Source: Spizellomyces punctatus DAOM BR117 (lineage: Eukaryota). Taken from it: a DNA stretch of 64,000 nt. Each line of letters starts with the position of its first letter. Position 1 is the first letter of the stretch. The translations under genes and the position numbers were made by a program. Below are positions 21,101 to 57,474 of this stretch, in pieces. Below the pieces are notes generated by a model, which had not been told where the DNA came from, made no database searches, and was given only the letters and a program-made list of their open reading frames with translations. The stretch lies in assembly GCA_000182565.2 (NCBI GenBank), contig KQ257469.1. One strand, written 5' to 3'.

Positions 21101-23094
21101 GGTATTATATTAGTACGAGCCATGAATGAAACGTAATGCAGGCCAAGACTCACCATCAGGGCGTTAAACATGAGGGAAGAAAACAAGGCTGCACCACGAA
21201 CGAAAGCACCGTTGGCATTGAGCGGTAGGTTGACATAGATTGTCGCGTAAATAAAGGCTTTGATAATCGTGAGGATAAGCTTGCCGATCAACGAGGCCTT
21301 GTCACCCGTCATGAGTTGTAGCTCACGAGCAACAAGGGCCTTGACTTGCTCATAAAAGTTGTTGGTATAAATGGTAGAGGCACGAGTACCCTTTGTCTTG
21401 GCTTGGAGAACCGTATCGTGGAATTCACGGTACGGTTGTTCCTTCTCAACAAAGGATTCATATTCGGAAATATCCATTTTCAAGCGCCTGTAGTCGTCTG
21501 AATTTTTAAAGTAGGCTTCCATGTCAACGGGATTACTGGGTACTTTGGCCCGGTCAACACCAGGCTGGTACAAGCGCTCGTTGGGGTTGGTGATACCGGT
21601 CAAGAAATCAGGCGTACTCTTCCGAGGCTCACAAGCGTATCCCATTTCCTGGAAGTACTTTTTGGCCCGGTTGACGGGACCAAAGAAGATCATGCGTCCT
21701 TTGTCAAGGACCATGACCTTGTCAAAGAGTTGGTACATGTCCTCGGACGCTTGGTAGAATGAGGCGATGGTTGTCTTGTTAAGAGTGTCACTCATGATCC
21801 GGAGACCACGGGTATAATCCAGAGCCGAAGCAGCGTCCAAGCCACGAGTACTGCAATCCCAGCAGTTGACGGCTGCACGAGCAGTCTAGCAATGGCAGCA
21901 ACCGAGTTAGCAACATGAGCTTCCATTTCAGACGTAAAAAAAAACAAAATACCCACCATGGCTTCTGTAATGGTCATACGCTTTCGCTCACCACCAGACA
22001 ATCCACGAACCCATTCGTTACCCACCAACGTGTTGATTTGCTTTGTGAGACCAAACATGTTGGTGAGCATGTATACAACCTTTTGTCTGAACTCGCGGCG
22101 GGTCAAATCGGGAAGTCGCTTGCCAGGTGTTTTGGTCTTTAGGGCAAAGTGGAGGGTTTCTTTGACAGTGAGAGTAGGAAAGTGGCTGCAATAGGCGACG
22201 ACAAATAAGAAACGTGATGCTTGTTAACAGTTAATGTCAATTCTTGACTTACGTGTCTTCCTCAGCAGTGTAAATGGCCTCTCCTGCAAATCTCCCGAAT
22301 TCGGATGCAGGAACACCACCGTAAGTGATGACACCTTGGATATCCTTGTAGGTTTTGGTATCATTCGCCATAACGCGCAGGAACGAAGAACAGCCGGAAC
22401 CCGGACGTCCAAGAACCAAAAGCATTTCTCCATCCTTGACCACACCGTTGAGTTCGTGTAGGATATCAAAGTCTGTTCCCTTCTGTTCTTTGCGGAACCT
22501 GTTTATTTTTCGATAATCGGTTAATCGGGGAGGAATGATCGGCACGTGTCGCGTTATCTGAATGGTAAATGAGACTTACCAAGAGAGTGGATTCAAGGCT
22601 TTCAAGCCATCAACGATGACGTCTCCCACATTGGAAATGCTGCTGGCATCAGCACCTTCACCAACGACGGTCAAGCCCTTGAAGACGACACCCATTCGCT
22701 TTCTCCCAATACCCTGCTCTGACGCTGCACGAACACTAGACTCTAAAAAGTCTTTCAGGTCAAATTGCTGCCCTTCTTCCACGATTACGTCAGCACCGCC
22801 TTCCAAGTCGGTAAGACCGATTTTCATGTCATCGGCCCCAACTTTGTTCGTCTTGTTCGTCTTGCTGCTTTTCATAGAGGGATCACGGGTAAGGGTTCGT
22901 CGCAATTCCAGCTCTGCACGGTGGAATTCTGACACTCCCTCGTCGACATTGACCTGTTGACCTTGCTGGTCATCATCTTCGATTGGTCGTGCGCCGTCAT
23001 TGACATCACCGAAAGCGTCACGGAGAGTGGGAACACCTCCAGTAGAGACTGCGTCTGCAGCGTTATAGCGAGGAGGACCGCTAACGCTCTCCAT
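18177..23094 (-). CDS. Full-size PDR/ABCG multidrug ABC transporter (multi-exon, spans an assembly gap)
   Basis: NBD1 [22 protein letters not shown] and [17 protein letters not shown]2 [33 protein letters not shown] and CTIHQPS. Confidence 0.95.
18611..18714. other. Assembly gap (104 N)
   Basis: Run of N inside the 3' part of the ABC transporter. Confidence 1.
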
Positions 23095-24264: not shown

Positions 24265-27056
24265 TCATCGCTGCGGTTCGTACTTTTTTGTCTGCGCTTT
24301 GATGGACGGCAACTGCATTGGGACCCGATCTTCGCTCCCTCCGCCGCCTCCTGCTCCGGGACCGGTCGTCCCGACATGTTTAGGTTTGCTCGATAGGGAG
24401 GGAAGAACAAAAGTGTCCTGAAATTGTTGGGTTTTAATATGGTACGATCGCATTTTTTCTTTGTTTGTTATCGACGAAAGACAAGTACCTTTTGTCCCAT
24501 TATCCCATGCTTCGCACGCATTTTTTCAGCATCTGGTTTGGCGACTGTGAGGGAGGGGAGGGTTGTCGGCTGTGATGGATGATGGTATTGCTGCGGTTGT
24601 TGTGACACACCGGCAATGGACGGAAGCTATTCAAAAAAAACCAACGTTGGCATATACAAATTACAGTGGTTTGATAATTCGACAGTACGAGACCCACCTT
24701 GTGTACAGTTGTCATATTCTTTGCCACCAGACTATGCCCCCATTGTCCTGCTCCCCTAGCATCCCCTCCTGGCACATTCTGCCGTCGTCCAGCACTAGGC
24801 CCACCCCCTCTCTTCCTGCCAGATGGAGCTCGTATTCGCCTTGCCCTCGCCAAAACACTCTCTGCTGCCTTCTTATCATCCATCTGCTGCTTGAATTTCG
24901 CATAGAAAGATGACGTTGAAAGTGACGAGGTTGTGGAATGCGTGTCGCTGGTATCTGGTTGACGGACATGAAGAGGTGGGACGCTCAGGATAGGAGGGAG
25001 AGTCGAGGTTGCAGTGGGTGGTGAAGGAGGATGGGCCTGCGGAGCGTGGCGAGCGGTAATGTGCTGGGGCACTGCATGGAGAGTTTCGCTTTGTGGTTCA
25101 GGAACTGGGTGATTGATGGGTTGGAGGGGAGGTCGCGTCGTGTCTTGGGGTTTGGGCACTGCATGCTTTGGCTCATGCTTTCGCTCGTGCTGTTGTTCAT
25201 GCTTTTGTTCATGCTTTGATTCATGCTTTGATTCATGTGGCTGTGACGGTTGTCCCCCGCCAGCGGCTTCCGTCTTCTTTACAGGATCATGTCGTGTGTC
25301 TGCTGGTGCATGATGAACAGGCTCAACTGCGACAGGTGCGGATTCTGCCACGGCTTTCTGGGGCAATGTGGGGAGCGATGGCGCCTGAGCAACTGGTTTC
25401 GGTGCTTTGATATATGTATATGAAGGCGCTGGTTTCTCCTCTACAGGTGCTGCATCCAGCTAAGAGGGAACGAAAGCATATTGAGCTCCCGAGGTCACCA
25501 GTCCATGGGGCCTCACTAGGCAACCTACCTCGTTGCTACTCTTCTTTTTTATTGGAACCGATGGTAGCGACCCTTGTTGAGCAAGTGAGGCGATCCTTTT
25601 GGCAGATCGCAAAGCAGCGGCTGATCGTGAACTTTTACTTCTCTCCATTTCCGGCTGGAGATCTCGAAAGTAAGCATGCTTGAGCGCCTCTCGCGATGTT
25701 ATTCTAGAGCGATAGACAGACGTTAAATCGCTTGCCAAGTCGAGTGTTTACAAAAGCAACTTGTGGCATACCGCTCCTCTGGGTTGTACGCAAGAAGGGC
25801 ATTAATCAAATCGACACAGTCTTGACTAATATGTGGAATCAGTGGTCGAATCCCCGTTCCCTCCTTTTGGGGGAAATTGTACTTTAGCGAGTTCATTTTC
25901 GGCCTGCCATCACAAAAATCAAAGGTATGAGGACATCATGCAGTTTCTGGCCAAAACCACATCGCTCTAGTATCAAGCATCACCTACCCAAGCATGTGCT
26001 TCAAAAGGTCCTTGCTGGGCGTGCCCATCACTGCATGAATCCTATGCAGCTGATCCAACTCGTTTGTCCCGGGGAAAAGTGGAACCCTCGACACGATTTC
26101 AAACAAGACACAACCCGCCCCCCATATGTCCATTTTATACGAGTAAATGCCTTCGGTGAGGAGGCATTCCGGGGACCGGTACCATCTTGTGGCAATGTAT
26201 TCGGTGTAGGGTTGCTTGGAGTGAATGCCACGGCAAGATCCAAAGTCGGCGATTTTGATGTTGTTGTCTTTGACGAGGATGTTCTAGGTGTAGGAGGGAA
26301 GCGTTGAATTTCCACACAAAGGTGAACTTGGGGAACTGCCAGAATGACTTACCTCAGGCTTAATGTCACGATGAAAAATCCCCTTTCTACAATATGTAAC
26401 AGATGTTAATACCCCATTGTCCAGCTTATATTCTCCATCGCTCTCAAAACGCTCACCCTACCCATGAATATACTCCAGAGCCTTACAAATCTGGTACATG
26501 AACAGCTTGGCCTTTCCCTCCGTTATGCTTGCCGATGTCTTCCGCTGAGAGATGAGCTCATACAGATTACATTCCATCAGTTCAAAGTTGAGGCTGAGAA
26601 TTCCATGTTTGGGGTCGCTGGGAAGGACACGGTCACAAGATGAGAAACGACCCAGCCGAACAAACAAGTATCGGAAACTTACAAGATGATGTCCTCAAGA
26701 TCAATGATATGTTGGTGAGGGTTGAGACGACGAAGTGCTTGGATTTCGCGCAGGTTTTCAATTTCGTCGTAGCTTTGCGAATGGCAATGGATATCAATGT
26801 ATGTCAGTGATGAGGCAATACGGATTGTATTTACCTGTTGAAGTGCTTTCGGAACCGCTTCATGGCAGAGATCTTCCCAGACTTTTTTTGCTTTACTTTC
26901 AGGACTTCCGAGAATGTGCCTTCTCCCAGCTTGCACATTAGGCGGTAGTCTGATGTAGGGTGTTAGATAAGGGAGGAGGGCAACACAAGAGTATTCGCTG
27001 ATCGTACCTTCCAACTTGCTCGTTGTCCCGCGATCCTCTGTCTCCTCTTTACCCAT
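24265..27056 (-). CDS. MOK: MAPK/MAK/MRK-overlapping kinase (RCK family) with a long low-complexity C-terminal tail
   Basis: LGEGTFSEV, NLREIQALRRLNPH, IFHRDIKPE, ADFGSCRGIHSKQPYTEYIATRWYRSPECLLTEG. The 3' exon boundaries are less certain. Confidence 0.88.
25165..25237 (-). repeat. Coding 12-bp tandem repeat (HESK/HEQK units) in the MOK tail
   Basis: Translates as HESKHESKHEQKHEQQHERKHEPKH. Confidence 0.8.
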
Positions 27057-41986: not shown

Positions 41987-43460
41987 CTACAACTTACTAT
42001 GGCTAACCTGAAGTTGCTTCTCTCTGTCAAGGACTTGACCAAGTCTCTCTAATCCAAGGCTCAATAGCGGCCATGACACAGTGAAAACAATGCGAAACCA
42101 CCCTGTCTCGGAAATATTGAACGCTTCACCTGGCAGTATATAAATCCCGCCATCCAAAAGCTTGTACCATAATTTTCTCCAGGGCTCATCCCCACTCTTC
42201 CCAGGAGCTTCAAACCATTTTGATAAATTCACCCTATAACATTATGGAACAGGTATTAGCATCAGGTAGTGGGCAGCGCAATATGAGGGTACGTACAGCA
42301 CAAAAAACCCGCTATCGGCAGTCATGAAAGGTATTTCCATCTTATTCAACTCCCCAACCAACCTCCCGTACTGTTCCTTCATCCTTTTCTGATTCTCCTC
42401 TACAAACCATTCCACCCACTGCTCGTCTTGTAATAGATTAGCAACAGCCCGATCGGCGAGACTGGAAGTGTTCGTGAATAGCGCAAACATCTGCATCGCG
42501 GCCAGTACCTCTGGGTTCCTGGATACGCAAGCACCAACACGCACGCCATTGATGCAAAAATCTTTTGACATGCTCCAAAGAACATGCGTATGCTCCGGAT
42601 CTGGGAGATCTGGGATGGATAAAACGGAGACAAAAGGGTTGGGGTTGATAAAGGTAGACAGAGCATAGATTTCATCAGAAATGACGTGGAGGTTGTGCTC
42701 TTTGGCCCAACGTAGTAAAGGCATAATTTCGGAAATCGAAAGAGCACGACCATGTGGATTTTGAGGATTGGTGAGTAGAAGTGCCCGTACTGTGATGTTA
42801 TCTTCCAGTGCAGCTTGATACGCCCTTTCTAGAGCGCTAACCTCGATCTTGAACGCATTCGCTCCGCTGGTATGAACGTGAATAGGTCGTGCTTCCGCAT
42901 ACTGACATCGGGTAAGTTTAAGAGCGGCGTCGTGACAAAGCATCTTACATCCATACCAGTGTCAAGTCAAAGTCGAAACCCCCATAGTACGGCGTAGGCA
43001 CTAAAATTCCTTCCCCGGGATTGGCAATGGTCTGTGCGATATTATTCACCGTTGCGCCGCAACCAGCATGTATCGTAATCTCATCCGGTCTAATCGCTGT
43101 ACACGGTTTCAAGTACTTGTTGAAAAGGTTGGCAACGGCTTTCCGAAGTGGTTCCGACCCGTGCATTGTTCCGTATTTCAACATATCTTCTGTTACTTGC
43201 CGTATTGAAGAAGAATTGAGCTGTGGATGATGAAAGATAATGAGAAGCTCTCCTAACATCTCTATAGCTCTTGAACGAACCTTCTCCAACAATTCTGGAA
43301 ACATCAAATGGTTTTCCGCCGTTCCCAAATTTACAACACCATTGGGAGACGCAACGGCATCATAGGGATTCGCAAGTGCTCGCGAAAGACCTTCCAATAA
43401 TGGAGACTTGTGCGCTGCGGCCGCTTGTGCTAGCCGCGATGTGCAAGGTCCTTGAGTCAT
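41987..43460 (-). CDS. PLP-dependent class I aminotransferase, ACC-synthase-like
   Basis: NPYDAVASPNGVVNLGTAEN, LVPTPYYGGFDFD, LLTNPQNPHG, ISDEIYA, SMSKDFCINGVRVG (PLP lysine), GWFRIVF. Confidence 0.9.
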
Positions 43461-43795
43461 TTGGAGATAACAAGTATGTACGATCTCACAATGGGCAGAG
43501 CAGATCAATTTCCCAAGATTCAAACATGAGTAATCTGGTTAATTAACTGAGCTGTGCTTATGTAATGAACTTATCCCGTCATTTCCAAAGTTCGGTGCTG
43601 ACAGTCGAGTTTCAAAAAGGCCAAGCTATGGCGAAGTAAAGGGACTACCATCAAGTCAACTTGGCTATTAGATCCAAAGGGCACTGAGTGGACAAGTTCT
43701 ATTCTTTTATGAACTGTTCAAATGTTTCTTTTATATGAGTCCCCGCATACTAAAAACTTGCACTACTGTCAAGACCCAAAAAGTCTGACAAAATA

Positions 43796-46700
43796 TCAAG
43801 GTTTGCCTTTGTCTGTCTGGTTCACAGACGTGCTGGAGCGCATCCTCCACTTTGCTCCGTAAATCATCACGATAACTACGAGCGCTGCACCAGTAACATC
43901 CACCATCGCCACGGACAAGAAAGCGGGCCATAGGCCTACCTTGTTAGTAAAGGGACCAATGATGGCGGAACCAAGGGCTGCCGCTGGGTTACGGAATAAA
44001 CTGTTCAGTGCCACAACACTTGAAGCTGATCCTGGAAAGCTGTCTATGAGGTACGTAGTGTTGCATGAGAAGAGCCAGGTCATCCCAAAGACACCTATTG
44101 CAATATACAATAAGCAAGGGTAACATTTTGATATACACGCAAGATGAGGTACTCACTGATAAAGAGCGACACAAGTAATAGGCTGACATGCCAGTGGAAG
44201 TGTCCCGCAAATCCAAAAAGGGCCAATCCGACTGGAAAGAGGATGATTCCAACCCACTGAGAGCGGATGCGTGATTCTGGCACATGGTCCAATCCCGTAG
44301 CTGACATCGCTTGGTGCAGCTTCCAATCCGCATAGCGGCCGCCAATAGTGGAGCCGAGAATGAATCCCACCCCAGTTGGAATGTAGGAAATGCCCACACG
44401 TGATGCGTCGTATCCGTAAACGTCTTTGAGCACAGCTGGGATTTCGACATTGAGACAGTAAAAAGAACCTGATAATGTCCATGATGGGAGAATGAGAGAA
44501 GTGACTACAAGGTATTCAATAATAACACAAATAACCTACCAAAGATGATACCGATGTAGGTGACGCATAGAGTAATGGACCTGAAGCGGAGGAAACGAAG
44601 TGGTGCAAGGGGATTATACTTTGTAGCAGACTTGGCGGCCTTGGTCTCCTCAAGGATATGCGGGCCAGGGAAGACCAACAGGCCATGGTCGGCGTACACC
44701 TGACCATTGCCAACCTTTGCTCGAAGAGTTTCCGGAAGAAACAACAAAAAGAGTATCCAAGTGACCGCTCCAAGGCCTGCCAGAAAGAAAAAGATCCATC
44801 TCCAACTGGCGTATTCAGTCAGGAAACCACCCAGAACAGGTCCAATGAGAGGTCCCATCTGCGGGCCAAGAAGGAATATCCCCATGGCTCGGCCGCGTTC
44901 GGTAGGTTTAAACAAGTCCGCAATGGTGCCAGCACCAAGAGATTGGACGGATGATGCTCCAATAGCTTGCACAATACGCAGTACGAGAAGGAGAGCATAA
45001 GATTGACTGAATCCAAGAGCAATGCTTGCGGCAACATAGATGGCAAACGATATGAGATACACGTTGCGGCGACCTGCCGAGTCCGCCAAGGTTCCCCATC
45101 CCATTGGCTGTTTGAAACAAGAAAATGCTGTAGTCACAAATGCGAAAAGGATAGAACATTCATGTAGACATTACCGCCACTGCAAAGGTCAACATAAACA
45201 TGGAAACTGTCAAGTTAATCATCGACACGCTGGTACCAAAGGCGGTTCTAATGCTCTCCATGGCAGGTAACTAAAAAGAAATGTCCATCAATGTCCCTTC
45301 GAAACTGTATGCAAAAGACGCATTACTTACATAGATATTACCAGCCAGCGGCCCAAAACCACCCGCCAATGCAATCAAAAATAGCAGGAATCTCCTGCGA
45401 GCAGGGGAATATGCACAATAAGGTTCTGATGCAGCGACTGAAGTAACCGAAAATTTTGTTGGTTCAGAAGACAGTACGATTTCCTTGACCTCGGCAGCGG
45501 GTGCGATTTCAGACCCGGGATCGGGGAGTTTGCTTTGGGTTCCTGCACCCTGTGGTATTTATTAATGGGAGAACCTTTCTTTATCTTTGGAGCAGAGAGA
45601 GATGCCAGACTTACTTTATACAAGCTGGCAAATGGTTGTTCAATGAGTAAATGGCTCGGCCTTCCATCTTCGTAGAACATAAGTTTGGGCTCTTTTTCGC
45701 CCCCGAGTTTAAGCGCATCCTTCTTCTTTGTTACAATACAGAGACCGTTACTGTCAGAGACGACAAGGTTGTGCCATGGAGTGGGTATATGAAACAATGA
45801 AATCTCTGTAGCGTCGCCTCTCTGACCGTCGAGAGTGCCAGCTTGGAAAACAAAATCTTTGTGTATGAGGTTCACTCCAAATTTGGGCCCAGCACAGTTA
45901 TATCTGTATCAATTCGAATCTTTCCGAATCAGATATGCTTCAATTTCTTGATGCTGTCATCTTCTTACTTACGGATGAATGGATATGCGAACATGAATCG
46001 GAAAAAGACGGCCAACAATTGTAGAATAAGCTTGGTTTCGCTAAGTAGGACAGAAGAAATCTTATTATCTGCATCGAATCACATATACAGAGGCTACAGA
46101 GACACTTACTATCAACATCTCCATCGCAATCTTGGAGCATAACTGCTTACGTGCATTTTTGGATGGTAACGCAAGCATTTCCGGCTGTTGCTGGAGATCT
46201 TCCAGTAAGAACCGAGAGAAGCCGCGATAAAGTCCTGTTACAGATGTATTCTGCTTGATTTCCTCATAAAGTGATTTCTCGTCTCTTCCAGCAAGAAGAC
46301 ACAATAGACGACGGGCGTCGTCAGCCGCCGGCAGCACGGACGCAGATGTGTAACGTGGAATGACATAGCAAGATAGACAAGGCAATTGCTCGGGGAAATG
46401 ACCCGGTTCTTCAGTAAATGTGGCGCGACTCGCATCAAGAGAGAGGAGATCATCAAGACCATGGAAGGTGAATATATCTGGCCTCCCTGACATGCTAGCG
46501 ACCGCAGTCCTTAACGTGCGGCCGTACTCGTTGACGCTGACATCCGGAACACCAACTGAGAGCGTAGTGATAAGTAATAAGAGACAATGTAGCTCCTCCA
46601 AATGACTACACACTTACGCAAGTCACTAAAGACATGACCATCAGAAACAATGGCGAATCGAACGCCAGGGACATACACTACTTCAATCATCTCCGCTACT

Positions 46701-47413
46701 TTGACCATAGTCTTGAAAGCGAGCTCTTCTCCTTTATCGGGAAGAGTTCCCAACACCTTGGACTCCTTGTTAGGTGACTTGCAGGGAAACCCGGGAAGGA
46801 TGAACTGAATGGGTAGGCTGCGATCGATGAAGTACTCAATCTTGTAGATGAAAAAGTCTCGCCCGCCCCCAGAGATCCATTGATCGTCGTGCGCCTTGAA
46901 ACGGAAATGACTGTCCAAGATTTCCGCAATGACAGCGGAGAGTTTTTTATTGTTTTCAGACCGCACTGGATGCAGAGACCAAGGCGTCACACGGCATTTA
47001 ATGGTGAGAAGACTCGAGAGGTAATGGATAATATCCGGCATGTTATCATTGTCAGCATCGTCGAGGTGACTGAGCGCTGCAACGCCTTGTATTGCCATAG
47101 ATGAATCCCGGGGAAGTGCCCTCTCATAGAATGTGACCGATTGTGCCGTCGTGAATTGGTCATCAAGTTCGACATTATACTTGTTGAGCTCTCCGTGAAG
47201 TCGAAGCGTAACAGCTCTGTGGCGTGCCGCTTCTTCAATAAAACTTGGTTTCACAAGCGCGGAAATGCTCGTGGGGAGCTGTCTGTCATCATCGGGACTG
47301 ACGGATTTCTCATAGGAAGAAGAAAGAAAATGAAGCTTCCCGTCCGCGTCGCATACATATACGAATAAAATAGCCTCTGTCGGCGATCTTGGCAAAGAGA
47401 TCTTGGTGTTCAT
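43796..47413 (-). CDS. DIT1: Predicted fusion of a Dit1/PvcA-type isocyanide synthase (about 533 aa) and a Dtr1/Qdr-like DHA1 MFS exporter (about 497 aa), 9 exons
   Basis: Exons 47413-46618, 46555-46110, 46040-45973, 45903-45615, 45549-45331, 45270-45175, 45107-44540, 44468-44157 and 44094-43796 give one open frame. Dit1 motifs: LPGFPCKSPN, LPDKGEELA, VSDGHVFSD, LYRGFSRF, RISIH, GPKFGV, HIPTPWHN. MFS motifs: GPLAGNIYLPA, WGTLADSAGRR, WRWIF, PETLRAKVGNG. Confidence 0.85.
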
Positions 47414-47577
47414 CGTGGTGCAGCAAAGCAGGAAGGTCGGACAAGGAAAACCGGACATGGCCGGGTCTGTTTTTATGCAACCTATTGTGCAAACAGAGCA
47501 TTAGAGCCAGCACACTGATGTGGCTTAGCGGGGCCACGCGCCGTTTATGCCATTGGGCAATGCAGTGCTTCACGTCT

Positions 47578-47697
47578 ACACGGGGGTTGTATTTCTGATT
47601 GGGAAGTCTCCCTCAATCTCCCCGATCAGGTCTCAGCCAATCAGAGACAGGAGATTCCACAGCCAATTGCATTAACACCGCGCGTCAACCCCCGTGT
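47578..47697. promoter_or_regulatory. Divergent promoter with nested inverted repeats and CCAAT boxes
   Basis: ACACGGGGGTTG (47578-47589) / CAACCCCCGTGT (47686-47697); TCTGATTGG (47594-47602) / CCAATCAGA (47637-47645). Confidence 0.5.
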
Positions 47698-47834
47698 GCA
47701 TAGTTCCGCAAGAACACCCCCAACACTGCCCAGACGGCCAACAACCGATCAGCTCTTTCTTCTCTCTCGTCTCTCTCCTCAACTTGGTTTTTTTTTTTGC
47801 TTGCTTTCCATCTCTTCTTTGCGTCTCATCCACC

Positions 47835-50054
47835 ATGGCAAACTCGACATCTGACTGCAATATTCTTATCGAAAATCCGCTTCCCAGTGGGGAGAAGCGC
47901 GAGTACACTATCGCTGAGGTGGACCGTAACGCTCCGAAAACCTCTTACGCAAGCCTCAGCAGAACGCGTGCTAGGGTGACCCTGGCTTGGTAGGCCGTCT
48001 TCTCTTTGGAACATGTCGTCGTTGTCTAACGTCACTGCTAGCGTCACTCTTGCGTACCTCATTGTCAACCTGGACGGGTCTTCCCCGTCCCTTATGACGA
48101 TTGGCAAAGACCTTGGCGCTTCTTCCCAAGAGCTTCCTTGGATTTTCAATGCATTCACGCTCGTTTCTACCCCTCTCATTCCGCTTTGGAGCCGTTTGGC
48201 TGTTGCATTTGGAGAGAGGACTTGCGTTAGCATTGGATTGCTGACGTTTGTCGCCGGTTCAATTGGCGCTGGTGCATCTAAAAGCATGGAGTCCCTTGCC
48301 ACCTTTCGTGGTTTGCAGGGACTCGGAAATTCCGCAATCACCGCCATGTCTCTCATTGTTTTCACTGGTGAGCGCTTAAGTTTTATTTCTGTTAAACTCG
48401 TGAAAATCGGTACCAATGATATCGTTCTTCAGATCTCTACCCGATTCATAAGCGTGGATTTGCATTCAATATTATTGGTGCTGCCATGGGCCTCGCAATG
48501 GTGATGATACACTTCATGGTTTTCACTCTTTGGCAGTTCAAGATGTTGATGCCGGTTCTTTTATTCACTTAGATTTTGGGCCCTGTTGTTGGCGGCTCGG
48601 TATGTAGCACGGTGCTCCAGGTAGTTTAAACCTTGCCGTCATTTAACCAATTCACTGCGCAGATTACGGACAATACTTCCATGGGCTGGAGATGGATCTA
48701 TTATATTCTCGTTCCGTTGTCTGTTTTCCTCTTGCCGCTTCCAGTATTGGTACAAAACTCTGGTGATCGAAAAACCAGTCGCGGAGCCCTGAAGGATATT
48801 GATTTCATTGGCTTCTTCCTCCTGGTTGCTACCGCAGTGTGTCTTCTATTGGCACTTCAATGGGGTGGATCCCAGTATGAATGGTCTTCTGGTGTCATTA
48901 TCGGACTGTTCTGTGCTGCTGGTGTTGCATTGGCAACCTTTGTATACGTAAGCTGATACTTGGGTTTCCTCCTCTGCAAATCGCATTTGACTAATTCTAT
49001 TGCGCCAGGTGGAAATATATGTTGCAGTGCAACCTGTGATGCCCCCGCATATGTTTAAATCTGTCAACGCCAATGCAGTCTTTCGTAAGTATACAAGTCT
49101 GCTTTTGTTATATTGATTAGCCAGCTAACCATTTGCCTGCAGTTCTGAACTTTTTCCAAGCAGGCGCTTCGATGGCTTTTATGATGTACGGGCCCATGTT
49201 CTATAAGGGCGACAAGGGTGATACAGCTCTACAATCTGCTGTTGATGTCTCTCTTCCCCTGAACTTGTCTTGGTAATTAGAGTCTGCTTTAGCAATTGAG
49301 TTCCAGCTGATCTAAAGTTGCAACACTAGGATGGTGTTTGGTATCGCTTCCTCCCGACTTTTGCCTTATGTTCGCGCCAATCACCTGGTGATCTTGGGTA
49401 CCGCACTTACAACACTAGGGACAGGTCTCTTCTCCCTAGCAGTTTCCCAAGGAGTGCCAAACAAGGGGGTTGCAGCGCTTTACCTCATGATTTTTGGTGC
49501 TGGACAAGGGTTCTCCACGCAGAACAGCTTTCTGGTAGCCCAAGCACATTTACCCGAAGGAGGTGACGCCAAGGTCATGTCCAATTTGCCCGCATACTTT
49601 CACCGCATTGGAGGAAGCATCCTAGTCGCGGTTCTTTCTAGCATCTACAAGCACGCCAATGGTAACGGAGGAATGAGTATGGGTAGCGGAGGTGGTATGA
49701 ACATGAGCGGGGGAACGAGCGGTGGAACGAGCGGTGGAATGGGCGGTGGAATGCAGGTATGTGTCTTGTGTCAGGTATTCGATACACGCATCAAACTCAA
49801 ACCTTTTATGAAAGGCACGAGACTCTATGACAATGACAATGCCAATGCCGAACAGTTCCGGCTCACAAGGAGGCATGAACATGGGCGGCAGCAATTCTAC
49901 GTCAATGGGCGGGTCGAGCATGCACATGGGTTCTACTATTGACGGTACCACTGCTGCATTCCGATGGTCCATTCTGTTTGCCGGGCTCTCGTTTCTTCTT
50001 GCATTTGGCCTCAAAAACACTTGGGTAAAACTCGGTCAAAGGATGGCTCATTAG
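47835..50054 (+). CDS. 14-TM MFS (DHA2-type) transporter with a Met/Gly-rich loop before the last TM
   Basis: LPWIFNAFTLVST...WSRLAVAFG, FRGLQGLG, GWRWIYYI, DFIG, LLLALQWGGSQYEWSS; several short introns. Confidence 0.88.
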
Positions 50055-50819
50055 CTAGTTTACTTCGTCTAGCAGTTTCTGTAGCAAGTTTTCATTTTGT
50101 TTGTTCACGCGAATTCTTATTGTCCAAGTTTAAATACAAATGTGCAACTAGCTTTGAGCTTTACTGCATGCATGCTTGTAGTGAAAAATACCCAATGCCT
50201 TATTGCTTTCATCCTTTAAGTTTCTTCCTTTATATTGTAAAAAGTATCGGGCCCTTCCTCTGAGAGGAGCGCTCGTCATCGCTACAAATGCAGCTCGGAG
50301 CACGTCCGCGCTCCTACCACTTACGTCCCGCGCGGCAAAATCCCTGACACTCCAACAGGAGCAACACCGTCGCTTTTCAACGACGGACCATTAAACGTAT
50401 TTCCGGTATCCGTTTTCGACCGAGTCGAGTTTAACGCCGATCCCGAGGCGATCTTCCCCCCTCTCTCCAACCATAGAAAGAAAACAAGAACACCAAAGAA
50501 AGAGAGAATGTTGGAGAGGTCGGCGAGGAGTATAGAAGTGCGGGGGGAAGAGGAAAGGTCGCCTTTTTATAACCCTGGAGGACTGCGCTTCGCTCAAGTC
50601 TTTTTGCCAATGTCATCCTTCTTCTCCAATAAGAACTCGTCCCTTTCACCTCCTGGCGGAATTCCTCGGGTGCTGACCTCTCTCCTTGATGACAGCGTAA
50701 GATTATGTAAACGCGTAAAGTCATTTTGTTTATATTTTCCCACGGTCCCATTTTGACATCGTTTTGACATGTTCCTACCAAGATTCTACATGCAGCGAGC
50801 TTAATTCTGCAAATACACC

Positions 50820-52761
50820 TTACTCTAACCGCTCAAACTGTAGCCGCAGTCCAACAGGAGCCAGCAATCCACCCGGCGTCATCTTGACTTTTGCATCCCC
50901 AGTCAGGTCCCAAGTGTATTGGTGCAGCAAGACAGCTGCAATGGTTTGCATTTCTGTAAGCGCAAGTTTCATTCCTAGACCTTTACAAAGAACGCAGAAC
51001 GGTTAGATTCCGAAATGGGATAAACAGTTATGATCTTACTGAGCACTTACACTTTCGCTCCCCTTCGGAAAACGGAACCCACTCATACCTTCCCACTCCA
51101 TCTCCGAACCTTTCCGGATCAAATACCTCTGGATCCTTCCATACACGCCGATCATGGTGCGCTCCAAAAGCGTGCCAGCCTACATATGTTTGGGCAGGGA
51201 TAATGAACCGCCCGAGAAACGTGGGACGAGTCGTGCAGCGATTGATGAGCATTGGAATGGGTGGGTACATTCGTAGAGTTTCTTTTACAACTCTTTGGAG
51301 ATAAGGGAGCGAAGGCATGCGTTCTGCCGTGGTTAGCTCTTCTAACGAGTATGCCTGAACTTCAGCTCGAGCTTTGTCTTGAACGTCCTAGAGGGTGAGT
51401 GAATTTAGAATAACCTAACGTCGATGGCAGTCGATCACGTTTTACCTGGTGTTTGGCAAGAAGGTAAAGCAACGACGTTAAAGCCTGCTGAACATTCTCG
51501 TGCCCCGCAACAAAGATGACCATCAAATTGTCCTAATCATTGCAAGTTATCGCTGTGATTTGCATACATAGACCAAGACTCGCATACCAACCCTGAATTC
51601 CTTCTTCGTCAATATTCCACTCTCATACGCCTTCACCAACCTGGCGATAATTGTTAGAACTTGGTTATCCTCTTCAACGGCCTTTTCAGCTGCTTCAAAC
51701 AGCACGCTCTCCATCCAATCAATGCGACGTCGGGCATCAATGCGACTTTTTATAGGCAGCCGATCAAGAACTGGAAAGAAAAGAAAGAGGGGCTTGAAGA
51801 TGCTCTTCTTAACTATCGAATGCGCAACGGAAATTGCTGTATTGGGGTTTTTGATGGCCTTTGCAATTTCGTGTGAGATGAGACATTTCCAATCATGAAG
51901 GAATTGCAGCCCACATTGAATTTTTTGCCAAACGCGGCCATTCCAATACCATCCATTGAGAGTCTAAAAGCCAAGTGTTCGACGATGAGCGGTTCTCATG
52001 TTAGGGGCGCCACTAGTTGGTGGGTAGGGGCCTCACTCACCGTTGCATTAGATTGTTTGTTTCAACTACTTCCGCATTTTTGCACTTCTTGTCTATTTCC
52101 TCAATCATGTCCTTCACGCATTCTTGAAAGACGGCAGGCTTCCAATGCTGTCGAAACCCAGGTGCAAGAACTGTGCGGAAGCGTTGCCATGCCTGTTGAC
52201 ATCCAACAAAACCATAAGTCGGATGGCAAAGAATTGAATCGGCAAGCACTTTCACTTACTTCCTCACGGGTTGAAATGATATTGGCACCCAAGAAGTATG
52301 CCAAAACAGAATGGGGAATCTTTTCATTGTTGCCAGATTTCACAAAGTCATCTGGTATGGAAGCACACATGTAAGCGATGTCCGTACGCCGTCCTCCCAA
52401 CTCGGATACTTGCCGGTTCTACTATAGATTTCTCTCGACATGTCTGGATGCCCGGCAACAATGTTCCAGCGCCCTCCAAACCACATCTACAGCAGATACC
52501 CAGGGCCATGAGCACGTCGCTGTCAGTCGCAATCACAGGAGATCCTACCGCGACAACGCCTTCTTTTTCCATCAAAGGGCGTATGTATCTCATGTATATC
52601 TCATCTTGTCCAAGCTTTGTGACAAACCCTAGTGTGGAGACCCAAAAAGGCACCACCGGAATGTCTTTTGGAAACGAGGACGGAGGAAAGAGGATGCTAC
52701 GTAAGAAGCGTAGTAAGACTAGGGCAAGGAAGAACAGTAGAAGGGCTATGAGGTCGGACAT
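50820..52761 (-). CDS. DIT2: Cytochrome P450, Dit2/CYP56-like (multi-exon, one GC-AG intron)
   Basis: N-terminal anchor plus FPPSSFPKDIPVVPFWV, GQDEIY, FGGRWNI, KSGNNEKIPHSVLA (CYP56-like), IFVAGHEN, KETLRMYPP, FDPERF and the heme motif PFSEGERKCLG. Confidence 0.88.
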
Positions 52762-53511
52762 TCTCGATGAGATCTGTCTGACTACGTGTTAGTACATGAA
52801 AGCGAAACCCCGCTGTCCGAAGGGTAGGACTAACGGCTAACGAAATCTGACTTCCTGGGCTGCTTACGCGAAACCGTTATACCGAACGTTCTGTGTTTTT
52901 GGGTGTACCTTGGCAACCAGGAGGCAGTACACGGAGGAATGTAAGTCTCCTTTCGTGTTCTGATTGAGATCAAAAACACGAGATCGTGGGAGACGTCAAA
53001 TATGTGCGGGAACCGTAGGGGCACTGCGACGGGCGTCACAATATTGGATGACTTCCGATCTCTCTCCGAGCGCCTATTCTTACAACCGGCCAAAATGTAT
53101 GTCCTTTGAGGACTCTCTCCGTTGTGTTGAAACTGACTGCCTACGATCACATCGAATGCTCATGCAAAAATCTCGAACACTTGCGCGTGTTGTTCACTGC
53201 AGTGCTGTGCCATCCGTTCCACCAATCGCAATAGGGGCGCGTGTTATTCCAAGCATACCAGGAAACTCAGGCTCGGCAAGCGACTGGCAGGTCGACAGGG
53301 GGGGTTACCGGAAGTCTCCTTCATGACATTGTTTTGTCTTGCGTAATTTATAAAATAAGGAAGTCGTCTTGCATGCTTTGGACATCTCCCGCAATCTACA
53401 CCAACGGGGAGGATTAAGCTCTCGCGTGACAACCATCCTGCGCCACTCCAATGGCAATAAAAGCGCGCGTTTCGCCGGCAGTCGTCTATTCTTGCTTGTT
53501 TGCAGCTAACA

Positions 53512-55811
53512 ATGACGTTGACGGATCTCATTACATTTAACAAGAAGAAGGAAACTGAAGCACGCACTGACGTGGAGGTGGAAGGTGACTTTTAGCAGGC
53601 GTTTTCCAGCTCATCGTTGCTTTTGCTAACAAAGGGCATAGTGGTTGTGTCCGACGAGGAGAACCAGAATGCACCCTTGTACAAGCACCTTCCTCTTCGA
53701 GAACTCATCATCACATACCTTGGGTAATAAATACATTCTGCATATCCTTCCTTAATACTTTCAGCTCACACATTTTCCACAAGTCTGACAAGTATTCAAG
53801 CCGTGATATCTCTCGAACGGAACGCCTTCCGTCCCATCAGTCCCAACGTGGCGTCAGACTTTGACAGTCTGAATGATCTCTCTTGGCTGGCTACCACAAC
53901 CTTTGCAGTATGGCTTGCCATCGAACCCATATGGGGAAAACTATCGGATTTGTTTGGGAGGAAGCCGCCGTTCATGATTGCCATTGTTGTCTATGTGCTT
54001 GGATTGATACTCTGTAGTGTGAGTCCATCGTGGACCGCGTTCATTGTGCGTATATCGTTGCTGTCAGATTCAAATGGCAGACCGTGTTTCGACATACCAT
54101 CTTTTGTTTTGCAATTCAGATTTTCAGAGCTATTTCCAGTATTGGATCTGGGGGCATCAACAATGCTGTCAACATCATCATATCTGGTAAGTACATAAAA
54201 TACCCTAGAACCCAAAAGGTTATTTGAACGTGACAATGGTCCACTTGCTTTTACTTTAGATATTGTTCCCCTGCGTCACCGTGGAAAATATCAATCTTAC
54301 TACGAAGTAGTGTTCCTCGGTACCAACGTCCTCGGCCCTGTCATGGGCGCAGCATTTGCGAACAACGACAAATGGCGTGGCAATTTTTATGTCTCTGCAG
54401 CATGTGCCACGTTTGTAGGGATTCTCCTCGCCTGGAAATTAAAGTTACCCAGTGCCTTTCGAAGCAAAGAATCGAGTGTAGCTAGAAGAGTTTACGGTCG
54501 GTTGAGAAGAGTTGATTATATTGGGACATTGATGGTTTCGGTGGGAGCTTTTGCTGTTGCTTGTGGCCTTCAACTTGGGAATCGAAAGGAATTCGGATGG
54601 AGCTCCGGTTGGTCTACGCATTTGATCACTATGCCTAACATAGAAGACTAAAATTTCCTTAACTTTCAAGCCAACGTTATAGCTCTTCTCACCTGCGGTT
54701 CGCTGCTTTCAGCTTTATTTGTCGTATATGAATGGAAATACGCTCGTGAACCTCTTCTCCCTCTGCGCCTATTCCGTTATCGAAACGTTGCTGTTGCATT
54801 TTTATTGTCGTTTATCCTCATGATTGGAACAAGCGGGCACGAGCTGTACCAGACCACCTTCTATCAGGTATAATACTGACATTGCACCATTCGGGAAAAC
54901 GTTCCTAGACACTGACAAGTGTCACATGGTTGGACTAGAATATCGTTAACCTGACTCCCTTCAAAGTCGGGCTCATCGAATGGGCCGAAACCATTGGCCA
55001 GACCGTCGGTGGAATTGCGTTTGGGTGGGCCATGGCCTTAACGGGACGGTACCGGCCTTTTCTCTGGTTGAGCATCGCACTAGTGTGTTGCGGCGTTGGG
55101 ATGATGGTGCAGATAAACCCAGATATACCTCATGCTTTATTGGTTGTCCAACGAGCGATATTCGGGATTGGGTTTGGAGCTGTATCCCATGTATTGCTCA
55201 TTGCAGCGCAGGTTGCTGTTGAGCATGTTGGTCGGTTCTTGGCAATGCATTTGAATTTTTTTTTTTTGCATCAGACTAACTCAATACCGCTTATATTCTA
55301 GACATTGCCATCGTAACATCCATGTTCTTTTTCTTTCGCGCGTTGGGGGGTCTCCTCGGTAATGCAATGTATGGCGCATTGTACGATTTTTGGGTCACCC
55401 AAGCATTGCGGAACAGGGCGCCGCCGAATACACCCCAAAGCGCGATCGATGCTGCCAAAAACTCTCTGCGCGGTGGTCGGACTGGAGGTGGACGGTCTAG
55501 TCCAACCTTGGATCGATCCATCGTGGCGAATGCGTACGCTGACACCTCTAGACAGATTATGTGGACTGAATTTGGTATTCTGGTATTTGCGCTTCTCGCC
55601 TCTTTGACGATAGAGCATTTTCCTTTGCCAAAAACTTTGGTGAGTATTAAATTGGATTCGCATTGGGACGGAATGGTGATTGATGATCTCAATTGGGTTT
55701 CCATAATAGGGACGTCGTGGAGTAAAAAGTCATGAAGAGATATCTACTGAGACCCGCTGCGAAACGAAACCAGGATCCGAGGACGAAAGCGCGCCGCCCA
55801 AACCGGCATAG
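53512..55811 (+). CDS. 14-TM MFS (DHA2-type) efflux transporter
   Basis: DLSWLATT, PIWGKLSDLFGRKP, ISDIVPLRHRGKYQ, GPVMG, RRVDYIG, EPLLPLRLF, FFRALGG. Confidence 0.9.
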
Positions 55812-56131: not shown

Positions 56132-56727
56132 CTATTTCGCAAACAAGTACCGAGCAGCGTACTCTTTTCTGTATTCCTTTCCATCAGCCTCCCAATGACA
56201 CCACTCATTAGGTGGTGCAACACCACCTTCAGTATCAATCCTTGCAACAAAGTTGATTTCGCTCATTTTGCCAGACTGGGACGACCAGGCTTTTTGGGTC
56301 ATGACCCAAGGAATGTTTTCGGTCGGTCCATGGGGTGAGGGAATGGGGATGACGGCTTTGGTAGCAATGAAGCTAGAGTCAGAGTGGAGTTGCCAATGTG
56401 GGACGGCTAAATGTAAACTAGATGAGTACATTGTGCTCACAAAGACAAAACTAGAGAAACACAAAAAAAAGAAAGAAAATACTCACCATCAACGAAAAAA
56501 TGTCTGCCAACTTCGTTTCCGTGTTGATCCCACAATGGGGCATCCGCACCCAACAAGAGCCACTTGCCCTGCGATGCATCGCAAATGTAATTTTGGGTAC
56601 CGCGGGCGAATAAATTCAATTCAGGCTGAGATGGGGGTGTAACAGTTTTTGGACGAGGCCAGGGTGCTGCCGAAGCAAGGAGTGGTGCGGCGAGGAGGAC
56701 AAGGATTTTTGTAATTGTCAAGGTCAT
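56132..56727 (-). CDS. Secreted DUF3455-family protein (2 exons)
   Basis: Signal peptide MTLTITKILVLLAAPLLASA, ARGTQNYIC, VGRHFF, NIPW, VARIDTEGGVAP, EYAARYLF. Confidence 0.8.
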
Positions 56728-57474
56728 TCTTGATTTCGATATGGGATGATATGTGTTGGAATGTCGTACGAAAGAATGGTATGCCACTAGGTAGTTTCTT
56801 GTCACTATTCAGTTGGAATGTGTTCTGTTGATGTTAGGAAGGCAGATGCTGGCAAGCCCTCCTTTTTAAATCCCTGCATTCTGGCTGGAGAGAAAGTCAT
56901 CGCAAAAAGCCCACTCTCCGGCCCTCACAGCCTCTCTACGGTAAATAGACGCACAAGTACGGTTCATGCTTGAACAAAATTGTTGGGTGAAAGGACATGC
57001 CCCCTCTTACCCCTCTCCAGCCAAAGTTGAACAAAATGCAAAAGTCAACGGCTCTTGTCGACCCCGATAGCCGGTGAACCATTTTTTTTCGGCCAGCTTC
57101 CGACCGCGGATAAGTGGCGAAGTAGCACCGCGCGACGCGACGCGCGACTCAGCCCAGTCTTTATTTAAACTTTGCTGGTAAATGGCTAGTCCAAGCAACC
57201 GGACGCTAGAAGCTCGTAATATAGATGGACATTAGCACTTGCGGATCTTTACCACCCAACCTAATGGTGCATTGACCAGAGTTGTCGAAATGGTGATGAA
57301 GTATTAAAAAGTCCATGCAAAGAGAACAGGAAAAGTAGAAAGCAAGAATTTTTGTATTTACATCATCTTACAGCGCAAAAAATAGCAAGCAATGACAAAC
57401 TGATATATGTTTCCCTATCATCAACACCACCATGCCCTGACAAAGGCGACTGGTATATATGCCCGGTCTACACC

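Follow-up and report, generated by a model that had tools for sequence, protein, structure and literature searches.

A methionine-rich loop and a membrane methionine/histidine set in an MFS transporter of a Spizellomyces punctatus isocyanide synthase cluster: a candidate for copper handling

The DNA considered here is a 64,000-nucleotide stretch of contig KQ257469.1 of Spizellomyces punctatus DAOM BR117 (assembly GCA_000182565.2), referred to below as the window. It is fungal-type DNA with short introns, and it holds a gene cluster containing an isocyanide synthase, a cytochrome P450 and major facilitator superfamily (MFS) genes. One of the latter, divergent from the synthase, is predicted to encode a 14-helix transporter with a loop rich in methionine (Met) before its last transmembrane helix (TM), and is called the Met-loop MFS in what follows. 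The best explanation of this protein is a transporter dedicated to the isocyanide synthase and P450 cluster. Copper handling by it, in either direction, is quite possible though short of probable, and the import version taken by itself (uptake of copper or of a Cu(I)-isocyanide complex) is unlikely. The loop is plausible as a copper-capturing structure; that copper is bound, which way transport runs and what is carried are points that we infer.

The transporter gene and its methionine-rich loop

The gene model was built from the genomic letters and six-frame open reading frames (ORFs), and it rests on sequence alone. Its main features are the following.

47835-50054, plus strand: gene for the 14-helix DHA2-type MFS transporter (Met-loop MFS), nine exons and 577 residues in the splice model
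47835-47989, 48042-48367, 48433-48500, 48573-48599, 48663-48947, 49009-49084, 49143-49272, 49330-49756 and 49815-50054, plus strand: the nine exons of this gene
49658-49756, plus strand: first half of the loop, residues 466-498, closing exon 8 and containing the 12-bp tandem repeat
49757-49814, plus strand: intron 8, 58 nt, GTATGT...AAG, inside the loop-coding region, predicted
49815-49931, plus strand: second half of the loop, residues 499-537, opening exon 9 in the splice model
49703-49753, plus strand: 12-bp tandem repeat, 4.2 copies, encoding GGTSGGTSGGMGGGM (Tandem Repeats Finder)
49827-49847, plus strand: 6-bp tandem repeat (ATGACA), 3.5 copies, encoding MTMTM (Tandem Repeats Finder)

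The eight introns of the model measure 52-72 nt and all begin with a GT donor; seven end in YAG. Intron 8 is closed by the unusual acceptor AAG, which is the only one of seven downstream AG sites that keeps TM14 in frame. The junction GGMQ/ARDS within the loop depends on this predicted 58-nt intron being assumed. The spliced 577-residue model aligns end to end with two relatives, P0014 and P0015. It is nevertheless conceivable that the Met-rich region is an artefact of the gene model and is mostly intron, for example an in-frame intron of 208 nt running from GTAACG at 49662 to an AAG/GAG near 49869-49872. The AAG acceptor, the existence of in-frame alternative introns (from a reading of frame positions) and the chytrid relatives that have no insert all fit this idea. 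Against it, the other seven introns are just 52-72 nt long, and the alternatives, besides relying on weak acceptors, would not remove GGMNMGGSNSTSMGGSSMHMG from the protein. Moreover, the predicted protein P0014 has a homologous Met-rich loop whose second half keeps its residue order, and the Met-rich coding sequence of another relative, P0012, reaches the same intron position. An artefact of this kind is judged highly improbable.

The loop spans residues 466-537 (72 amino acids, encoded by 49658-49756 and 49815-49931) and is composed of 15 Met, 24 Gly, 14 Ser, 6 Asn, 5 Thr and 1 His, together with two acidic residues and no Cys. Since the remainder of the protein holds 17 Met in 505 residues, the binomial probability of the loop content is 1.5e-8. 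Spacing is also distinctive: of the 15 Met, 12 fall into MxM pairs, which number seven. Shuffling the loop 20000 times gave 2.9 such pairs on average, and 0.5% of the shuffles reached seven. Conversely, MM is absent against 2.9 expected, a state found in only 2.7% of shuffles. These counts confirm the peptide proposed in the initial annotation, with 15 Met in about 70 residues and mostly in MxM pairs, and its remark that the other DHA2 pump of the cluster (53512-55811) has no such loop also stands, as the corresponding loop there shows no Met enrichment. Among 127 MFS proteins compared, the richest 70-residue window contains at most 9 Met in 126 of them; the exception is P0014 with 16, and the Met-loop MFS itself has 15. 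A six-frame scan of the 64-kb window found no second coding Met-rich stretch, and a Pfam search with the loop exons at E up to 1 found no family matching the loop. Three N-glycosylation sequons each occur in this loop and in that of P0014; they carry no weight as evidence here.

Copies of the 12-bp repeat at 49703-49753 vary between ACG (Thr) and ATG (Met), one transition apart, and the P0014 loop is likewise abundant in Thr and Met. Met content could therefore shift by simple C/T changes in a Thr-rich linker. The loop probably grew by repeat slippage.

Database searches used single exons of the Met-loop MFS as queries. An exhaustive HMMER search of 1.84 billion representative sequences with exon 8 minus the loop (110 residues) returned seven matches at E <= 1e-3, four of them at E <= 1e-10. 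A word-indexed search of longer proteins with exon 8 yielded 6834 candidates, none of them significant, and look-alikes of the pump in the ESM Atlas belong only to generic ascomycete MFS/TRI12 clusters. As judged from the sequences recovered, the subfamily is small, divergent and fungal, and it is thinly sampled in databases. Its distribution is patchy or its sampling poor. Six members were recovered; the three that bear an organism name are all chytrids, and no organism-named ascomycete orthologue was among the six.

Five relatives bear directly on the loop. P0012 is a fragment of 133 residues that is 85% identical to the Met-loop MFS; it is Met-rich up to the position of intron 8, where similarity ends, and beyond this point it probably reads into the equivalent intron. 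P0014 is 46% identical over the 110-residue query and is predicted as a P450-then-MFS fusion of 1120 residues, the MFS part of which has no N-terminus. It is probably a gene-prediction merger of two neighbours on the same strand, the corresponding genes in the window being convergent. The P450 half of P0014 aligns to the window P450 at 50826-52695, so the linkage of pump and P450 recurs, with a different orientation. Its loop has 97 residues with 20 Met, arranged in seven MxM and four MxxM pairs and no MM; 3.9 MxM pairs are expected, 5.6% of shuffles reach seven, and 0.8% of shuffles are without MM. The exon-9 half of the loop scores 62 against the P0014 loop, compared with 44.9 +/- 6.0 in shuffles, 21 of 2000 of which score as high. 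The remaining three, P0013, P0015 and P0019 (NCBI), come from the chytrids Cladochytrium tenue and Zopfochytrium polystomum; P0013 is 45% and P0015 40% identical to the Met-loop MFS over the query. Conservation of the loop in relatives, which the initial annotation named as a check on its copper proposal, is thus patchy: the loop is seen in the P450-linked P0014 and in shortened form in P0012, and is absent from the three chytrid proteins.

Fold, membrane side and membrane methionine/histidine set

Assignment to the MFS follows from several lines. The exon-2 ORF matches Pfam MFS_1 (E 4.3e-12, 46 bits against a cut-off of 33.4), as do P0014 and P0015 (E 4.5e-30 and 5.1e-29). A search with exon 2 matched 11 proteins at 35-39% identity, among which three JGI names read EmrB/QacA-subfamily and two NCBI names MDR/MFS transporters; the two organism-named matches are from Streptomyces. 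Against PDB sequences, P0015 finds EfpA (E 1.1e-16) and EmrB (E 1.8e-16). The AlphaFold model of P0015, made from an alignment of 91 sequences, has a mean predicted local distance difference test (pLDDT) score of 90.9 and 14 helices. Its best fold matches are EfpA, EmrB, MHAS2168, QacA and NorC, with query-normalised TM-scores of 0.71-0.83; sequence identity to the DHA2 proteins EfpA, EmrB, QacA and NorC is about 20-25%. The Met-loop MFS itself has 14 hydrophobic segments. The helices and membrane residues that matter below are these.

48486-48500, plus strand: TM5 motif M179-x-x-x-M183, just upstream of GPxxGG, present in the Met-loop MFS, P0014 and P0015
49172-49198, plus strand: TM9 motif M323-x-x-M326-M327-x-x-x-M331, invariant in five of five subfamily members covering it
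49382-49384, plus strand: His374 at the cytoplasmic start of TM11, His in six of six subfamily rows and in 0 of 114 outgroup proteins
49580-49648, plus strand: TM13, residues 440-462, holding His447 (49601-49603), placed by hydropathy and alignment
49962-50024, plus strand: TM14, residues 548-568, placed by hydropathy and alignment and equivalent to helix 448-470 of the P0015 model

The side of the membrane on which the loop lies can be read from solved DHA2 pumps. In QacA, TM1-6 and TM9-14 are described as two bundles with TM7-8 inserted; extracellular loop 7, which joins TM13 to TM14, is a site of variable insertions and there carries a hairpin required for transport (PMC10425836). The helices equivalent to TM13 are modelled confidently by AlphaFold in both P0015 and P0014. 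With the N-terminus inside, the loops of the Met-loop MFS hold 18 Lys and Arg on the inner side and 6 on the outer side. Because the TM13-TM14 loop is extracellular loop 7 in the solved DHA2 pumps, and because the charge count agrees with the positive-inside pattern, the Met-rich insert is assigned to the extracytoplasmic face, that is, outside the cell, or in the lumen if the pump is organellar. Two claims of the initial annotation receive support here: that this gene encodes a DHA2 pump divergent from an isocyanide synthase (from the 14 helices, the MFS_1 match and a DIT1_PvcA match at the synthase) and that its Met-rich loop is probably extracytoplasmic. In the P0014 model, confident helices flank the insert, whose block has pLDDT values of 34-71, and the insert is thus probably disordered.

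The position of the insert also brings in a regulatory alternative. Loop 7 of QacA is reported to be a swappable module and to touch extracellular loop 1, a contact on which transport depends (PMC10425836); the insert lies at exactly the equivalent site. In a copper-gated exporter, Cu(I) bound on loop 7 would alter the contact with loop 1 and so switch ligand export by the level of copper at the surface. The disorder predicted for the insert from the P0014 model, where a folded hairpin would be needed, and the chytrid members that work without any insert make such gating quite improbable.

The conserved motifs of the family are kept in part. Antiporter motif C (G-x-x-x-G-P-x-x-G-G) is present in TM5, where the Met-loop MFS reads MILGPVVGG and the consensus of 91 aligned relatives GPLLGG. 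Motif A in the loop between TM2 and TM3 is degenerate, reading SRLAVAFGERT in the Met-loop MFS (within 48139-48225), ARLAHAFGNRA in P0014 and SRLSLAFGDRR in P0015, against a consensus of GKLxDxxGRxR; its Asp is lost throughout the subfamily. In addition, the TM1 motif 'LDxTIV..ALP' is replaced by N-L/F-D-G. On sequence grounds, these changes to motif A and the TM1 motif suggest an unusual transport cycle or substrate. Compared with EfpA, EmrB, QacA and NorC as a group, the Met-loop MFS is alike in fold, in number of helices, in having GPxxGG in TM5 and in its TM13-TM14 insertion site, and differs in the missing motif A Asp, the altered TM1 motif, the replacement of a conserved TM13 Arg by His, and an insert that is disordered and Met-rich in place of a helical hairpin.

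The subfamily was aligned with 114 outgroup DHA2 proteins using fast MAFFT settings. At 38 positions the subfamily has an invariant residue that is rare (<=5%) in the outgroup; these residues include 5 Met, 2 His, 1 Cys and 9 Asn. None of the 114 outgroup proteins has an MxxxM in TM5 or an MxxxMxxxM in TM9, although a neighbouring TM9 column holds the outgroup's own Met in 87 of 114. At the His447 column in TM13, Arg is found in 94 outgroup sequences and His in none. The TM5 and TM9 Met together with His374 and His447 are retained in the chytrid members that have no loop. TM5, TM9 and TM13 line the cavity in the general MFS scheme; the conservation moments of the membrane Met helices, at 0.06-0.18 bits per residue, are a weak signal on whether these residues face it. 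As far as the alignment goes, the Met/His set of the subfamily speaks in favour of a soft-metal reading.

The isocyanide synthase cluster

The surroundings of the gene were characterised by a Pfam scan of 123 ORFs of at least 110 residues across the window and, between 39.5 and 57.5 kb, of 76 out of 186 shorter ORFs. Apart from the Met-loop MFS, the cluster contains the following.

42245-43538, minus strand: class I/II aminotransferase at the cluster edge (Pfam Aminotran_1_2)
44098-45170, minus strand: second MFS gene of the cluster, in ORF pieces (Pfam MFS_1 and Sugar_tr)
about 45375-47458, minus strand: single-domain isocyanide synthase (Pfam DIT1_PvcA), with its start codon at 47458 or 47413
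47459-47834, no strand assigned: promoter common to the divergent isocyanide synthase and Met-loop MFS, read directly
about 50820-52761, minus strand: cytochrome P450, convergent with the Met-loop MFS (Pfam p450)
53512-55811, plus strand: third MFS gene (TRI12-like, DHA2-like) without a Met-rich loop (Pfam MFS_1 and TRI12 within 53731-55298; ends taken from the initial annotation)

DIT1_PvcA matches three ORF pieces of the synthase (46514-47500, 46068-46613 and 45378-45908), and the Pfam scan found no fused dioxygenase or other domain in or between them. The synthase and the P450 lie about 3.4 kb apart, both on the minus strand and with the Met-loop MFS between them. Look-alikes of the P450 in the ESM Atlas fall into CYP52-type clusters, which is a lead only, and a search for bacterial relatives of the synthase confirmed none. 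No dioxygenase, isocyanide hydratase or transcription factor domain was found among the scanned ORFs in 42245-55811.

Three different MFS genes, at 44098-45170 (minus strand), 47835-50054 (plus strand) and 53512-55811 (plus strand), are thus present in the cluster alongside the aminotransferase gene. Such a set of three pumps suggests a division of labour, for instance between export and uptake.

The neighbouring P450 invites one further explanation of the exposed Met, namely an oxidant sink or redox switch: surface Met would scavenge oxidants produced by the P450 or by radical coupling, or would form a reversible Met-sulfoxide switch, without any metal. The high density of exposed Met and the adjacent P450 gene are its sole support. 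Scavenging does not need the regularity of MxM or the avoidance of MM, the MxxxM motifs in the membrane would be left unexplained, and no Met-sulfoxide reductase gene was seen among the scanned ORFs of the cluster. We consider this explanation very improbable.

Several further elements lie in the same window. A DUF3455 gene (56135-56808, minus strand) stands directly past the third MFS gene. About 20 kb upstream of the cluster is a gene for a full-size ATP-binding cassette (ABC) transporter of the PDR/CDR type (18180-23094, minus strand; ABC_tran, ABC2_membrane, PDR_CDR and ABC_trans_N). A Met-rich match at 25162-25251 was rejected, since it is the wrong frame of a His/Glu/Lys repeat. This repeat (HESKHESKHEQKHEQQHERKHEPKH), at about 25160-25240 on the minus strand, belongs to a 319-residue ORF (24503-25459) without a Pfam match; by its composition the His-rich stretch of this ORF could be metal-binding.

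Copper handling, its precedents and its rivals

Several known systems provide points of comparison. Copper transporters of the Ctr type carry MxM/MxxM motifs and an MxxxM in TM2. An extracellular Met- or Cys-rich region is described for Ctr1 and Ctr3 (PMC6514546). Like these SLC31 proteins, the Met-loop MFS combines an extracytoplasmic, Met-rich and Cys-poor MxM stretch with an MxxxM in the membrane. The resemblance is one of function and not of homology: a Ctr protein has three helices, forms a trimeric channel and bears its Met domain at the N-terminus, whereas the Met-loop MFS is a 14-helix carrier with an internal loop.

An architectural parallel is offered by the bacterial copper importer CcoA, an MFS protein for which an essential M233xxxM237 in TM7 and H261xxxM265 in TM8 are described. 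Once the two inserted helices are discounted, TM9 of a DHA2 protein corresponds to TM7 of the 12-helix MFS core (PMC10425836). By their described motifs, CcoA/CalT and the Met-loop MFS are thus both MFS proteins with Met/His motifs in the membrane, and the MxxxMxxxM lies on the corresponding helix, TM9. CcoA differs in having 12 helices and no Met-rich loop, and the Met-loop MFS is without an HxxxM in TM10 and has DHA2 antiporters as its nearest relatives. The fungal SIT family (Sit1/MirB) supplies another parallel. By description, its members are also fungal 14-helix MFS proteins, and they import a metal-ligand complex; these siderophore importers are reported to depend on a residue of the terminal extracellular loop (PMC8470733). 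Unlike the Met-loop MFS, SIT proteins lack a Met-rich loop, and they carry iron(III) siderophores by proton symport.

Isocyanide clusters linked to copper are known from fungi. Three fungal isocyanide clusters have been characterised, and two of them, xan and crm, are described as copper-responsive (PMC5974471, PMC9381783). In crm, crmD encodes the copper transporter CtrA1 and crmC a siderophore-type MFS protein, and all of crmA-D are induced by copper starvation (PMC9381783, PMC5974471); xan is described as having no transporter (PMC5974471, PMC9381783). The Aspergillus fumigatus crm cluster (crmA-D) therefore resembles the present one as a fungal isocyanide cluster that includes metal-transport genes. 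It differs in having a separate Ctr protein and a hybrid of isocyanide synthase and nonribosomal peptide synthetase (ICS-NRPS), in contrast to a single-domain synthase placed beside an MFS protein with Ctr-like features. A copper-responsive cluster of Pseudogymnoascus was considered as a parallel and rejected, that fungus being described as without isocyanide synthases (PMC12113139).

A further comparison is with the dit family, in which a single-domain synthase is paired with a P450 (PMC10153163). As in yeast Dit1/Dit2/Dtr1 and the fungal dit superfamily, a DIT1_PvcA synthase is here co-located with P450 and MFS genes; unlike the adjacent dit1/dit2 pair of yeast, both genes lie on the minus strand with an MFS gene in between. 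Dtr1 is of the 12-helix DHA1 type, and is described as an MFS multidrug-resistance protein. Hazimycin is a biaryl-coupled tyrosine diisonitrile. It is reported to form copper complexes (PMC13647977). In Streptomyces, the cluster for the isonitrile chelator SF2768 (sfa) likewise includes its own MFS gene, although the accessible part of its description reports no Met-rich loop for that protein (PMC13500777).

In the mechanism considered here, extracellular loop 7 would have gained a Gly/Ser/Thr/Met insert of 72 residues that may serve as a thioether-only Cu(I) antenna, analogous to the Mets motifs of the Ctr1 ectodomain. Such an antenna would keep Cu(I) at the entrance to the outward-open cavity, where copper and the cluster isocyanide could meet. 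In the preferred version, the loop would bind Cu(I), either free or in an isocyanide complex through the coordination sites left open there, and would then pass its cargo to the membrane Met/His ladder (TM5 MxxxM, TM9 MxxxMxxxM, His374 and His447) for uptake. Free ligand would be exported by the two more ordinary MFS pumps of the cluster. Uptake or hand-off is favoured because these two further pumps are available for export. Of the proposal made in the initial annotation, the placing of the loop and the chemistry are thus plausible, and the chalkophore role is a putative one.

Several observations weigh against copper handling, and a number of them fit a plain exporter, which would move a tyrosine-derived isocyanide or formamide by proton antiport and in which the Met stretch would be repeat-driven filler, perhaps a glycosylated spacer, with no role in copper. 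The fold is of the DHA2 type and, as in exporters, both the TM5 antiporter motif GPxxGG and an Arg in TM4 are retained. About 60% of fungal isocyanide clusters are reported to carry an MFS gene and 35% a P450 (PMC10153163). In DHA2 pumps, the loop joining TM13 to TM14 is known to vary, and the DNA for it contains tandem repeats here: three of the seven MxM pairs arise from the single hexanucleotide repeat at 49827-49847, and the extra loop length over P0012 is the 12-bp tandem repeat. Where the Met-loop MFS has 33 residues, its 85%-identical relative has about 10 (GSGGMNMGGM), and on this comparison loop length appears to drift quickly. The chytrid proteins P0013, P0015 and P0019 have a short loop without the insert, with six residues between the helices in the P0015 model, so the insert must be dispensable for the basic function of the subfamily.

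The order of residues over the whole loop aligns with P0014 no better than shuffles do (732 of 2000 score as high). Cautions apply to the membrane motifs too: TM9 of the outgroup carries 0-3 Met, with a single MxxxM in 22 of 114 proteins, and the nine Asn among the 38 subfamily positions fit a polar organic substrate as well as a metal. Nor do the surroundings point to copper, since none of the ORFs scanned by Pfam has a Ctr, reductase or multicopper oxidase domain, and the common promoter (47459-47834) is without a TGCTCA, TTTGCKCR or TGTGCTCA site. TGCTCA is the core site of Mac1 (PMC11563359); one copy occurs in the promoter between the P450 and the third MFS gene, at chance density (39 sites in 64 kb). 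Two precedents lean in the same direction. In SF2768, the cluster MFS protein Orf12 is described as exporting the free isonitrile ligand, and an ABC system as importing the copper complex (PMC13500777). The dityrosine clusters of yeast have no known metal link (PMC10153163).

Nevertheless, a plain exporter does not account well for the whole pattern. Two lineages with just 46% identity between them both maintain a Met content near 20%, and both avoid MM and favour MxM beyond what composition would give. Since the order of the loop is unconserved and its Met content and spacing are retained, what has been kept is a rule of composition and spacing and not a sequence. Nothing similar is present in the remaining 125 MFS relatives compared, the subfamily has a membrane Met/His set of its own, and two further ordinary MFS pumps could take charge of export. 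A plain exporter is therefore regarded as possible, if doubtful.

Copper handling by the Met-loop MFS, the reading preferred here, can be extended to the subfamily as a whole. Its members would then form a eukaryotic MFS-type copper carrier convergent on Ctr1 and bacterial CcoA, in which the thioether ladder of TM5 and TM9 and the two His would move Cu(I) or an unsaturated Cu(I)-isocyanide complex. The loop 7 receptor would have been added in some lineages and would recognise the metal rather than the ligand scaffold. This wider proposal is speculative and unlikely to hold. To our knowledge, and as far as limited searches go, it would be the first eukaryotic MFS protein built on the CcoA principle, if the copper reading is true. 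A limited search of the literature (titles and abstract openings) found no earlier description of an MFS pump that belongs to an isocyanide cluster and bears a Met-rich loop.

Should the loop prove to be neutral filler, it would serve as a warning that Met-rich, low-complexity inserts arise by slippage at the tolerant TM13-TM14 loop. The alternative carries more consequence for isocyanide biology. Fungal isocyanides of the xanthocillin type bind copper, and a review describes the route of their exit from the cell and of their return with copper as unknown (PMC6514546). A cluster-encoded carrier with a Ctr-like Met antenna outside and MxxxM motifs in the membrane is a concrete candidate for this transport question. 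If the wider proposal for the subfamily is true, its carrier would supply what is missing from a fungal isocyanide chalkophore system, the step of uptake or hand-off.

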